64,000 nucleotides of DNA from a virus (taxonomy: Duplodnaviria > Caudoviricetes): the IMG/VR virus record IMGVR_UViG_3300020419_001132; one strand, written 5' to 3'. The position numbers and the translations under genes are program-made. The notes beneath the pieces were generated by a model. The model worked only from the letters and a program-made list of their open reading frames with translations, did not search any database and was not told the origin of the DNA. Positions 51,704 through 53,490 of this stretch are shown one piece after another; position 1 is the first letter of the stretch, and every line of letters begins with the position of its first letter.

Positions 51704-51732
51704 ACTATACACTCTTTAAATAAAGAAGTCAA
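51704..51732 (-). promoter_or_regulatory. sigma70 promoter TTGACT-N17-TATAGT
   Basis: Upstream of ligase; the -35 contains the upstream TGA stop. Confidence 0.7.
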
Positions 51733-52451
51733 GTATTTTGGCAAATATATTGGAAAGCTCTGTCTGCAAAGACTTTATGAGATTGTTCTCCTGGATGTGA
51801 ATTGTCTAAAGCAAAATCTTGCATTGTTTTTGATATATCAACTATTCCACTAACTTTAATTGGTACATAATTTATAGAATCCAAGTCGTGTTTTTTCATA
51901 AAATTTCTTTCGTGATAGCTTTTACCACAAGAAAAATAATATGCTGTAATATTTTTATGTTTTAAAAAAAGGTATACATAGTTTGTTAGAGTTATCCAAT
52001 CAAGATGAATATGTGCTTCTTCTGCAAAAAAACTTACCCAAACTTTATCAAGGGCAGTTGATTTAGGTTTCCTATTAGCAAAAATTTGTTCTATTACCCA
52101 TTCACCATATTTTTCATTTGGATTGTAAGGTGCATTAGTCCCCAAGCCGGATTCGGCTTCAGGCTCATATTTAATAAGACAACTTCTAGGAATAGGGGGA
52201 AACATTACTACAACCATATCGCCCTTTCGATATTTTGTTGTTTGTATCTTATGTACTACTTCTCTCATACTAGCACCAGGATTACTTAGATTTAAACAAA
52301 CTCTGTTTAGATCATTACTTAATAATTGAGGCCAGGCAAACTTAGAAGGTTGCTCTCCTGCACCCATACCTATTGCACAATCTCGTAATCCGTGTCCGTA
52401 TGTATTACTGCATCCAAAGGCTATTAGGCGTCTTTTTTTAGGTTTCTTCAT
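51729..52451 (-). CDS. SGNH/GDSL-like hydrolase
   Basis: AFGCSNTYG, NLSNPGAS and DNSHPG motifs. Confidence 0.75.
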   Translation of the reverse strand: MKKPKKRRLIAFGCSNTYGHGLRDCAIGMGAGEQPSKFAWPQLLSNDLNRVCLNLSNPGASMREVVHKIQTTKYRKGDMVVVMFPPIPRSCLIKYEPEAESGLGTNAPYNPNEKYGEWVIEQIFANRKPKSTALDKVWVSFFAEEAHIHLDWITLTNYVYLFLKHKNITAYYFSCGKSYHERNFMKKHDLDSINYVPIKVSGIVDISKTMQDFALDNSHPGEQSHKVFADRAFQYICQNT

Positions 52452-52456
52452 GTCAA

Positions 52457-52464
52457 TATTTATA
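52457..52464 (-). promoter_or_regulatory. T4-late promoter TATAAATA
   Basis: Exact consensus 5 nt before ATG 52451, no SD. Confidence 0.7.
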
Positions 52465-52505
52465 ACGGGTATGTTCAGTATGCATAGCTATTTGATATAG
52501 CACAG

Positions 52506-52513
52506 TATAAATA
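52506..52513 (+). promoter_or_regulatory. T4-late promoter TATAAATA
   Basis: Exact consensus heading the plus-strand small-protein operon. Confidence 0.7.
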
Positions 52514-52518
52514 CAGAT

Positions 52519-52624
52519 GAGCTAGTTCAGCTCAGGCACCTGGGAAAGACCAAGTGACGTCGGAAATAGACCGAGGTATTGCTCCCCTTAAGCATCCAAA
52601 ACTTAATAGAAACAGGAGAACACT
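52519..52624 (+). ncRNA. Candidate structured 5' leader (four hairpins)
   Basis: Stems GAGCT/AGCTC, CACCTGG/CCAAGTG, TCGG/CCGA and TGCT/AGCA; begins at the predicted +1. Confidence 0.45.
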
Positions 52625-52828
52625 ATGGAAAATGTGTATAAAGTCCTACGATTTTTGTTTGGATCAATTGATAACTCATCCAAACACGAAAGCTATCGTA
52701 TATGGGCTAAGACAGAGTATGGTAATGATTGGCGTTTTGTTTATCAACACCTACTCGAACATAACGGCCAGCCGCCGAAAAAGCAAGACTATCAAAATGT
52801 AAATGAAAACTTAAAAGGATGGGTATAA
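52625..52828 (+). CDS. Small hypothetical protein
   Basis: AGGAG SD; WAKTEYGNDW motif. Confidence 0.7.
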   Translation: MENVYKVLRFLFGSIDNSSKHESYRIWAKTEYGNDWRFVYQHLLEHNGQPPKKQDYQNVNENLKGWV

Positions 52829-52832
52829 AATT

Positions 52833-53018
52833 ATGACTACACAAATATTAACAACCTACTATTGTAGAATATGCGATAGTATTTCAAACGGACTTAAAAC
52901 TATCGGAAATGGCTGTATAAGTTTTTTCGAAACTGCAGGGACTGCAAGAGCGGCCGCTGAACTTACTCGTATGGGTATGCACAAAGAAGCTAAATCACTT
53001 ATGACAGGAAAAAAATGA
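52833..53018 (+). CDS. Small hypothetical protein (weakly DUF1127-like)
   Basis: AAGGA SD; ARAAAELTRMG. Confidence 0.65.
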   Translation: MTTQILTTYYCRICDSISNGLKTIGNGCISFFETAGTARAAAELTRMGMHKEAKSLMTGKK

Positions 53019-53161
53019 ATACATTAGCTAAAATATGGAAATACATAAGGCCTAAAACACATCAAGAAATGATCTATGATTACTTGGCATCGTCTGCAAA
53101 TCTAGTAGAACTTGAAAGAAGACAACAAGCAATAATTAACGGTAAAGTAAATATTTGGTAA
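53015..53161 (+). CDS. Small protein, DUF3563-like (48 aa, not in ORF track)
   Basis: MNTLAKIWKYIRPKTHQEMIYDYLASSANLVELERRQQAIINGKVNIW; YLxxSxxxxxLERR pattern; ATGA coupling. Confidence 0.7.
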   Translation: MNTLAKIWKYIRPKTHQEMIYDYLASSANLVELERRQQAIINGKVNIW

Positions 53162-53162
53162 C

Positions 53163-53237
53163 TGGCACAGGTGGAAGGAATCGAACCCTCTCTTTCAGGT
53201 TTGGAATCTGACGTGCAACCATTAACACTTCACCCAT
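53163..53237 (-). tRNA. trnW: tRNA-Trp (CCA), 3' CCA encoded
   Basis: 75-nt cloverleaf: D arm GTGT/GCAC, anticodon loop TT-CCA-AA, T arm GAGGG-TTCGATT-CCTTC, ends GCCA. Confidence 0.9.
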
Positions 53238-53255
53238 AGAACTTATTGTCTATAT

Positions 53256-53284
53256 AATGTAACACAAGTATTCTTATGTGTCAA
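53256..53284 (-). promoter_or_regulatory. sigma70 promoter TTGACA-N17-TACATT
   Basis: Directly upstream of the tRNA. Confidence 0.65.
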
Positions 53285-53298
53285 GTCTAAATTTTAAA

Positions 53299-53490
53299 TT
53301 ATTGTAGTTTATTACAGACATACTTATTGCCAAGAGGAGACTCTATAGCAATGTATGGTAATTCTTCATTAGGAGCCCGACATTCAATCGAGTTCCAACT
53401 ATATCCCTGTGTAAGTTGTTCGTTCATTGTGTCAATGAACTCTCTGTTATCATACGACCATAGGGCCGCAAAAAGTGTTAAAAATACCAT
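53299..53490 (-). CDS. Small exported hypothetical protein
   Basis: Hydrophobic N-terminus, two Cys; GAGG SD. Confidence 0.6.
   Translation of the reverse strand: MVFLTLFAALWSYDNREFIDTMNEQLTQGYSWNSIECRAPNEELPYIAIESPLGNKYVCNKLQ

Follow-up and report, generated by a model that had tools for sequence, protein, structure and literature searches.

Whether the DNA between a late promoter and three very small genes of an uncultured phage encodes a conserved, structured RNA, and by what means such an RNA might act on the genes behind it, is the question raised by one locus of the window, the whole 64,000-nt stretch of viral DNA analyzed here. A preliminary description, made from the sequence letters, had proposed a riboswitch-like leader, loosely reminiscent of one arm of the c-di-GMP-I riboswitch, that would form an undescribed module of cis-regulatory RNA and small proteins. 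Comparison with homologous loci, with described RNA families and with related operons is presented below.

Architecture of the Leader and Its Operon

Inspection of the locus revealed that the outline first given for it is sound. The late promoter motif and the four consecutive hairpins are all present in the sequence and in alignments, and three ORFs of the predicted sizes (67, 61 and 48 amino acids) follow them (Table 1). The stop codon of the last ORF lies 1 nt from the 3′ end of a convergent tRNA, identified as tRNA-Trp. A CTCC tract that had been suggested to pair with the Shine-Dalgarno (SD) sequence is indeed complementary to it (CUCC at 52582–52585 in the RNA).

Table 1. Coordinates of features at the leader locus of the window
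Feature	Position	Strand	Basis
T4-type late promoter motif, TATAAATA	52506–52513	+	Exact match; promoter function inferred
5′ hairpin, GAGCU-AGUUC-AGCUC, 5 bp	52519–52533	+	Covariance model (CM) and MAFFT alignments
Hairpin H1, CAC(C)UGG/CCA(A)GUG, loop GAAAGA	52537–52556	+	Model helix 2
Hairpin H2, UCGG/CCGA, loop AAAUAGA	52560–52574 (with flanks, 52557–52577)	+	Model helix 3
22-mer, GGUAUUGCUCCCCUUAAGCAUC, 3′ hairpin and pyrimidine anti-SD-like loop	52575–52596	+	Near-invariant pattern in IMG/VR
Fourth hairpin, within the 22-mer, UGCU/AGCA (52580–83 with 52591–94), loop CCCCUUA	52580–52594	+	
A-rich spacer, SD GGAG (52615–52618) and bases to start codon	52597–52624	+	Sequence
P0001, 67-aa WAKTEYGNDW protein, C-terminal tail NENLKGWV	52625–52828	+	ORF
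P0002, 61-aa protein of the ..AGxARAAAEL.R.G.H.EAK.LM family, N-terminal CxxC	52833–53018	+	ORF, alignment
P0003, 48-aa protein, weakly DUF3563-like	53015–53161	+	Start overlaps P0002 stop (ATGA)
tRNA-Trp (CCA), 3′ CCA encoded	53163–53237	−	ARAGORN; Rfam tRNA, 42 bits

Across the AT-rich window the motif TATAAATA is not enriched (11 copies versus 10.1 in shuffled sequences). Among 91 homologous leaders, ATAAATA was found 51–169 nt 5′ of the 22-mer in 84. Folding of the window leader as a single sequence gave a structure no better than those of shuffled sequences (minimum free energy −24.8 kcal/mol, z = −0.81), and support for the window fold comes from comparison with homologues and not from single-sequence stability. 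By that comparison, the window carries a minimal two-hairpin type of leader with a rare loop variant.

Distribution of Homologous Leaders

A covariance model, R1, was built from seven short-form leaders taken from 7 other phage contigs, with the window left out. R1 matched the window once, at 52518–52596, with a score of 71.4 bits (E = 1.8e-12), and gave one match per locus in 84 of 85 IMG/VR loci. A directed search of IMG/VR with the 22-mer pattern GGTATTGCTYYCCTYAAGCATC returned at least 118 viral contigs, from which 91 distinct leaders were obtained, each located 15–30 nt 5′ of an SD sequence and a small ORF. The upstream regions of P0001 relatives in IMG/VR share the leader motifs, with stems that visibly compensate.

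A sample independent of the 22-mer was provided by 80 metagenome loci that were found via the downstream protein alone and represent the best 80 of more than 540. The RNA was present directly upstream in 65 of these 80 loci, ending ∼25–30 nt 5′ of the ORF; the remaining loci were either cut at a contig end or came from a polar subgroup whose leader is of another type. One Tara Oceans contig among the same best 80 encodes a protein 100% identical to P0001 of the window. The family comprises at least 122 distinct leaders, in which 7–21 nt separate the 22-mer from the SD sequence and the ATG follows the 22-mer by 18–33 nt. Homologous leaders, collected through the 22-mer and, as proposed at the outset, through the WAKTEYGNDW protein, were conserved in well over 100 contigs and showed abundant compensatory changes, the opposite of a leader without conservation or covariation.

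Exactly one copy of the RNA was found per phage record of 155–237 kb, for which CheckV completeness values of 42–67% imply full genomes of ∼350 kb. Among the isolated phages of INPHARED, neither the region nor P0001 nor a long leader had a match at the DNA or protein level, and a search with the ligase gave no pointer to the host. Bacterial genomes yielded only three matches, all in marine metagenome-assembled genome contigs that carry the same phage locus and look like binned phage DNA. Judged from these contigs, the RNA family occurs in more than 100 uncultured marine jumbo (∼350 kb) phages with predicted T4-type late promoters, in which it forms, between this promoter and the SD sequence of the first gene, the 5′ leader of a late small-protein operon.

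Covariation and Modular Structure

In the model-fitted alignment of the viral loci, 96.8% of cells fell in standard pairs, compared with 28–42% when the pairing partners were slid; 14 pairs showed changes on both sides, and none of 500 shuffled alignments reached the observed covariation score. The metagenome loci behaved similarly, with 96.6% of cells in standard pairs as opposed to 30–44% with slid partners, 19 pairs with changes on both sides and, again, no shuffle of 500 reaching the observed score. Although model-fitted alignments are biased toward the model, the slid controls fall far below the observed values, and compensatory changes can be seen in the raw sequences. Three helices covary strongly. 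Frequent G-U pairs, 37 of them at one pair, for example, assign the fold to RNA of the plus (sense) strand. That the window stretch belongs to a real, conserved and structured RNA family is considered almost certain.

Hairpin H1 showed double-sided changes at 6 of its 7 pairs across the family. In H2, 99% of cells were paired and 4 pairs carried double-sided changes; its flanks, AC(G)...(G)GU, make up the “GACG” unit, and in the covariance model alignment the window has U-A where C-G stands in most members. The 5′ hairpin of the window is, on the evidence of the covariance model alignment, the MAFFT alignment and the pair counts of the relatives, the homologue of stem S1 of an H-type pseudoknot. 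This pseudoknot occupies the 5′ end of the RNA in many relatives, where 97.6% of cells were paired, compared with 22–36% in slid controls. S1 has the form RAGC/GCUY, with a perfect switch from G-C to A-U (10 versus 8 sequences), and S2 has the form CUCA/UGAG with the variants UUCA/UGAA, AUCA/UGAU and CACC/GGUG, the two stems being joined by an A-rich tail. In the window, S1 alone is retained, as a simple hairpin, and neither the A-rich tail nor the second strand of the pseudoknot is present.

The family is built of modules: first a pseudoknot or plain 5′ hairpin, next between one and four hairpins whose loops read NA(N)AGA, then, in some members, an additional hairpin by which H1 becomes a junction and, in all of them, the 22-mer. 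The commonest loops of the array are GAUAGA, AAAAGA, GAAAGA and CAAAGA, each of which follows GAC(R) or CAC. A minimal form of ∼45 nt, consisting of one hairpin and the 22-mer, is found at three loci (L036, L078 and L082). The MAFFT alignment of the long, “type B” leaders was too inconsistent for pair counts, and covariance model alignments were relied on instead.

In long-form leaders (for example L034:897–1009, L067, L110 and L009), the loop of the junction hairpin and a single strand 5–10 nt after it were seen by eye to change together, the co-changing triplets being AUC/GAU, CUC/GAG, ACU/AGU and CGC/GCG. This suggests a further pseudoknot of 3 bp in the long forms.

The Invariant 22-nt Element and Its Pyrimidine Loop

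The 3′ element of 22 nt, GGUAUUGCU..CCU.AAGCAUC, is nearly invariant. In two directed scans of IMG/VR, the two G-C pairs in its stem (G7 and C8) were never found altered, so covariation speaks neither for nor against the 22-mer helix, and the constraint lies on the sequence and not on pairing alone. Variation is confined to the loop, which occurs as UUUCCUC, UUUCCUU, UUCCCUC, AUUCCUC and CCCCUU; the last, the form found in the window, was present in 2 of 122 distinct leaders. A divergent arrangement was seen in one member, L202, in which a GGAUG/CAUCC helix and a CUUUCC loop are kept and the stem differs. Invariance of this kind points to recognition of the 22-mer by a conserved partner.

The SD sequence, AGGAGA or GGAG, has its complement in the pyrimidine loop, which reads UUUCCUC (CUCCCCUU in the window). 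UUUCCU can be matched with AGGAGA over 6 nt in 77 of the 122 leaders, and at least 5 nt can be matched in 108. Given that loop and SD are both nearly constant, and that any pyrimidine loop complements GGAG, these counts are not a covariation test of the pairing. Thermodynamic folds gave the SD sequence no consistent partner, pairing between it and the 22-mer appearing in 15 of 122 minimum free energy structures. The same loop is also complementary to purine-rich loops upstream, such as GGGGAAG with CUUUCCU in 48 leaders; this loop-loop complementarity, like that to the SD sequence, is only modestly above that of shuffled sequences and is confounded by the relatedness of the leaders.

Comparison with Described RNA Families

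At the gathering threshold, a search of the whole window against Rfam 15 returned the tRNA only, as did cmscan of positions 52300–53300 with permissive filters and E values up to 10, a result consistent with an undescribed RNA. For 14 homologous loci, the output consisted of tRNA and an unrelated weak match to CsrC elsewhere. The c-di-GMP-I, preQ1 and glutamine riboswitches and ar14 were absent from the Rfam results for the window, the 14 loci and two isolated leaders. The c-di-GMP-I riboswitch is excluded, there being no match at E values up to 10 in the window and none in the relatives, and the resemblance to its P2 arm that had been noted earlier was not borne out. Of the module initially proposed, the part that stands is the conserved structured RNA tied to small proteins, for which no Rfam family was found; the link to c-di-GMP-I falls away.

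The best sub-threshold Rfam match was freshwater-2 RNA (RF02980), a cis-regulatory candidate from metagenomes that is likewise a hairpin-containing leader, ending AAGGAGAAAA..AUG. It was rejected, as were the other hits below threshold, as noise arising from the RBS: scores of 19.5 and 15.9 bits were obtained in two relatives, compared with a gathering threshold of 49.9, and the match rests on a generic hairpin and ribosome-binding site (RBS), skips two inner segments of the model and is without a counterpart in the window.

Several RNAs resemble the phage leader in topology or position. The 5′ module of the relatives has the topology of preQ1-I-type RNAs (a hairpin, an A-rich tail and a 3′ strand running into the loop) and, like preQ1-I and c-di-GMP-I RNAs, the phage RNA lies in a 5′ untranslated region adjoining the SD sequence. 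It differs from both in giving no covariance model match, in having a pseudoknot that is optional and missing from the window, and in being followed by genes that offer no clue to a ligand. The 5′ H-type pseudoknot of the relatives, near the start of a T4-type transcript, also recalls the T4 gene 32 leader; in the latter the region after the pseudoknot is single-stranded, whereas in the phage RNA it is structured. Arrays of the CsrB/RsmZ type share with the phage RNA short hairpins with a fixed loop that vary in number, but CsrA sites are GGA loops and those of the phage RNA are NA(N)AGA. Protein-binding translational operators share its location directly upstream of the RBS.

The literature searched contained no description of this leader RNA. 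Structured 5′ leaders being a known kind of RNA, the phage leader is apparently a new, undescribed family among them. It is set apart by a modular array of hairpins, an anti-SD hairpin that does not vary, the drive from a late promoter and the partnership with small proteins of the DUF1127 type.

Small Proteins Encoded Downstream of the Leader

The WAKTEYG family to which P0001 belongs comprises 178 representative clusters at E values up to 1e-3, and its alignment contains invariant A, E, Y, D, W and P positions. P0001 matched no Pfam family, and its AF2 model is helical and weak (pLDDT 69). P0002 had been described as weakly DUF1127-like, an assignment that is withdrawn, since it gave no Pfam match at E values up to 1 (DUF1127 is PF06568, cutoff 23.3 bits) and its alignment with phage DUF1127 proteins by hhalign had a probability of 26.5% and covered the N-terminal region only. 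The weak likeness of P0003 to DUF3563 (PF12086), by contrast, was upheld at 15.6 bits (E = 0.016), below the cutoff of 26.9 bits; of the 9 members of its family, 8 matched DUF3563 at E values up to 1, with scores that all stay under the cutoff, the highest being 23.2 bits (E = 4e-06). Look-alike clusters in the Atlas for the protein families of the operon consisted of viral hypothetical proteins only.

In relatives the usual order is a WAKTEYG gene, a true DUF1127 or a DUF3563-like gene, a gene for the AGRARAAAEL.R.G.H.EAK.LM protein and often further tiny proteins, whereas the order in the window is WAKTEYG, the ARAAA protein and the DUF3563-like protein. The operons of the relatives contain 64 ORFs with the DUF1127 motif, with Pfam scores of 37–44 bits against the cutoff of 23.3. 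A tblastn search of the 64-kb window found no DUF1127 domain.

Two short segments recur in operon proteins of different families. A C-terminal tail, N-x-N-L-(K/R)-G-(W/F/S)-(V/I), is common to unrelated proteins (52802–52825 in the window; L006, L025, L031, L034 and others) and is carried by the WAKTEYG protein in the window and by DUF1127 or DUF3563-like proteins elsewhere; it may be a docking, sorting or degradation signal. An N-terminal segment, MTTQ.LTTYYC..C, with a single CxxC, is common to ARAAA- and DUF1127-type proteins (52833–52880 in the window; L028:1489–1892). The small proteins of the operon appear, from such shared segments, to be mosaics of a few modules. At two loci (L023 and L106), the operon continues into a pseudoazurin-like exported protein of 144 amino acids, the fourth ORF after the RNA, and at L082:9400–9670 it continues into a protein resembling the c subunit of ATP synthase.

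Possible Functions of the Leader

The position of the leader is what would place the three ORFs under its control. On the plus strand no terminator-like site was found in the leader or the operon, and a leader without a terminator implies control on translation or stability and not on transcription; taken together with the constant short distance to the SD sequence and the occurrence at one operon per genome, this argues for control in cis. The small hairpins, with identical loops in variable number, fit a protein-binding array better than an aptamer. The interpretation tentatively preferred, to which a probability somewhat short of even is attached, is that the leader is a cis-acting element of translational control and probably bound by protein.

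In this proposal the RNA would act in cis on the initiation of translation, and the one to four short hairpins, with their fixed NA(N)AGA loop and GAC(R) 5′ flank, would be the platform for a trans factor. The factor would most likely be a protein, possibly one of the small proteins encoded in the operon. Its occupancy would decide between two states, one in which the anti-SD sequence is locked in its own hairpin and the SD sequence is free and another in which the two are paired and the RBS is closed. The DUF1127 protein CcaF1, which is Smaug/SAM-like, binds RNA directly, and mutation of the hairpin loop abolishes binding (PMC8034643). This property, in combination with the DUF1127 genes of the relatives, makes operon-encoded proteins plausible ligands. 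The candidacy of DUF1127 itself is weakened by the lack of such a domain in the window, and either a DUF1127 protein would be encoded elsewhere or the ligand would be another protein. A finding that runs against a switch in cis is that distant WAKTEYG homologues work without the RNA.

The same DUF1127 connection lends itself to a different, less probable interpretation, in which cleavage of the late mRNA in the A/U-rich spacer would release the leader, which would act in trans as an sRNA, its anti-SD loop pairing with RBSs of host or phage with help from small RNA-binding proteins of the operon. The leader would then correspond, on the viral side, to the alphaproteobacterial CIN1 locus, which comprises the cuckoo/CcsR/NfeR (ar14) sRNAs and the DUF1127 protein CcaF1 (PMC8034643). 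The CIN1 sRNAs of Sinorhizobium come from the 5′ untranslated region of the DUF1127 gene, and CcaF1 binds them and affects their maturation (PMC8034643). Both systems have a multi-hairpin RNA with a pyrimidine, anti-SD-like loop and a variable number of modules, cotranscribed with small DUF1127 proteins, which on the phage side are those of the relatives, where genuine DUF1127 genes lie right behind the RNA. The conservation of the loop motif even in L202, where the stem differs, also favors this interpretation. The two RNAs have, however, no similarity in sequence or by covariance model, and no match to Rfam ar14 or another sRNA family was obtained. CIN1 RNAs carry CCUCCUCCC in each hairpin loop, whereas the phage RNA has a single UUUCCUC-type loop, the others being purine-rich NA(N)AGA loops. 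The first phage gene encodes a WAKTEYG protein and not DUF1127, which the window operon lacks altogether, and the phage unit follows a T4-type late promoter. Processing of the sRNA is known on the CIN1 side only, the phage leader having neither a terminator nor a known processing site. A scan of the window gave no convincing extended target, and seed pairing leaves the invariance of both stem strands unexplained.

A broader proposal, likewise considered doubtful, is that the leader could be a phage regulatory RNA hub with an array of SD-like purine loops and a 16 S-like anti-SD loop which, together with small RNA-binding proteins of the operon (DUF1127/SAM-like and others), would sense a new signal of late infection or be released to re-program translation and RNA turnover of host or phage. 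If so, it would be the equivalent in viruses of the CcaF1-CcsR “cuckoo” system or else a new class of riboswitch restricted to phages.

Sensing of a metabolite or ion, toward which the preliminary description leaned, is slightly less probable still. In that case a small aptamer would be made up of the 22-mer and the hairpin next to it, possibly held together by contact between loops, and the ligand would free or sequester the SD sequence. An extremely conserved core flanked by covarying stems is what aptamer cores show; the peripheral elements (the pseudoknot and the junction hairpin) are optional, the ∼45-nt minimal form exists, and the pyrimidine loop has its purine-rich complements upstream. 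A count of small hairpins that ranges from one to four is, by contrast, seldom seen in aptamers and is characteristic of arrays that bind proteins; no riboswitch in Rfam was matched, the tiny downstream proteins give no metabolic clue, and the loop-loop complementarity is subject to the reservation stated above.

A constitutive role, in which hairpins stacked from +1 would protect the late mRNA from 5′-end-dependent decay or form a fixed translation enhancer with no switching, has an equally small probability, for although a 5′-terminal hairpin directly follows the promoter in all types, including distant relatives without the rest of the RNA, and A-rich unstructured sequence borders the SD sequence on both sides, a simple stabilizer needs no invariant 22-nt element, fixed loops, pseudoknot or junction, and the RNA occurs once per genome, at one operon, despite the many late transcripts.

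Widespread and strongly covarying RNAs that are tied to one gene set have repeatedly proved to be riboswitches, ribozymes or protein-regulatory RNAs. To our knowledge, phages have so far yielded very few such structured RNAs, and the uncultured jumbo phages that abound in the sea almost none; a role of DUF1127 in RNA binding is only now emerging. With at least 122 distinct sequences, a 22-nt core, a minimal form of ∼45 nt and a fixed partner operon, the family lends itself to direct tests in vitro. Through it one may learn how the timing or tuning of a late “small-protein” program is achieved in giant phages and whether the bacterial partnership of DUF1127 proteins with sRNAs has a viral version.

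Relatives without the RNA and Flanking Genes

Eight WAKTEYG relatives from polar metagenomes (L155, L174, L180, L187, L190–L192 and L199) do not have the RNA. In them, TATAAATA is followed immediately, ∼60 nt before the gene begins, by AAGCAG..CUGCUU and a run of eight U residues. This terminator-like hairpin between promoter and SD sequence is possibly an attenuator, and its presence hints that the leader of the operon is a regulated point. In more distant WAKTEYG genes, sampled in other environments, the leader consists of no more than a motif like a late promoter, a small 5′ hairpin and a spacer rich in ACA, which makes the structured array an addition in one marine lineage.

Just upstream of tRNA-Trp, a sigma-70-like promoter, TTGACA-17-TACATT with a TG element, was noted on the minus strand at 53256–53284. 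The tRNA and the late operon would on this basis be convergent units with no terminator between them.

On the other side of the leader, a second copy of TATAAATA is located on the minus strand within 52451–52464 and ends 5 nt before the ATG (52451) of a divergent gene at 51729–52451 (minus strand) whose product resembles GDSL lipases (Pfam Lipase_GDSL, 24.5 bits). Were this copy to be a late promoter, the mRNA of the lipase-like gene would have no leader or almost none. Two homologous loci, L127 and L128, keep this arrangement of minus-strand motif and lipase-like gene.
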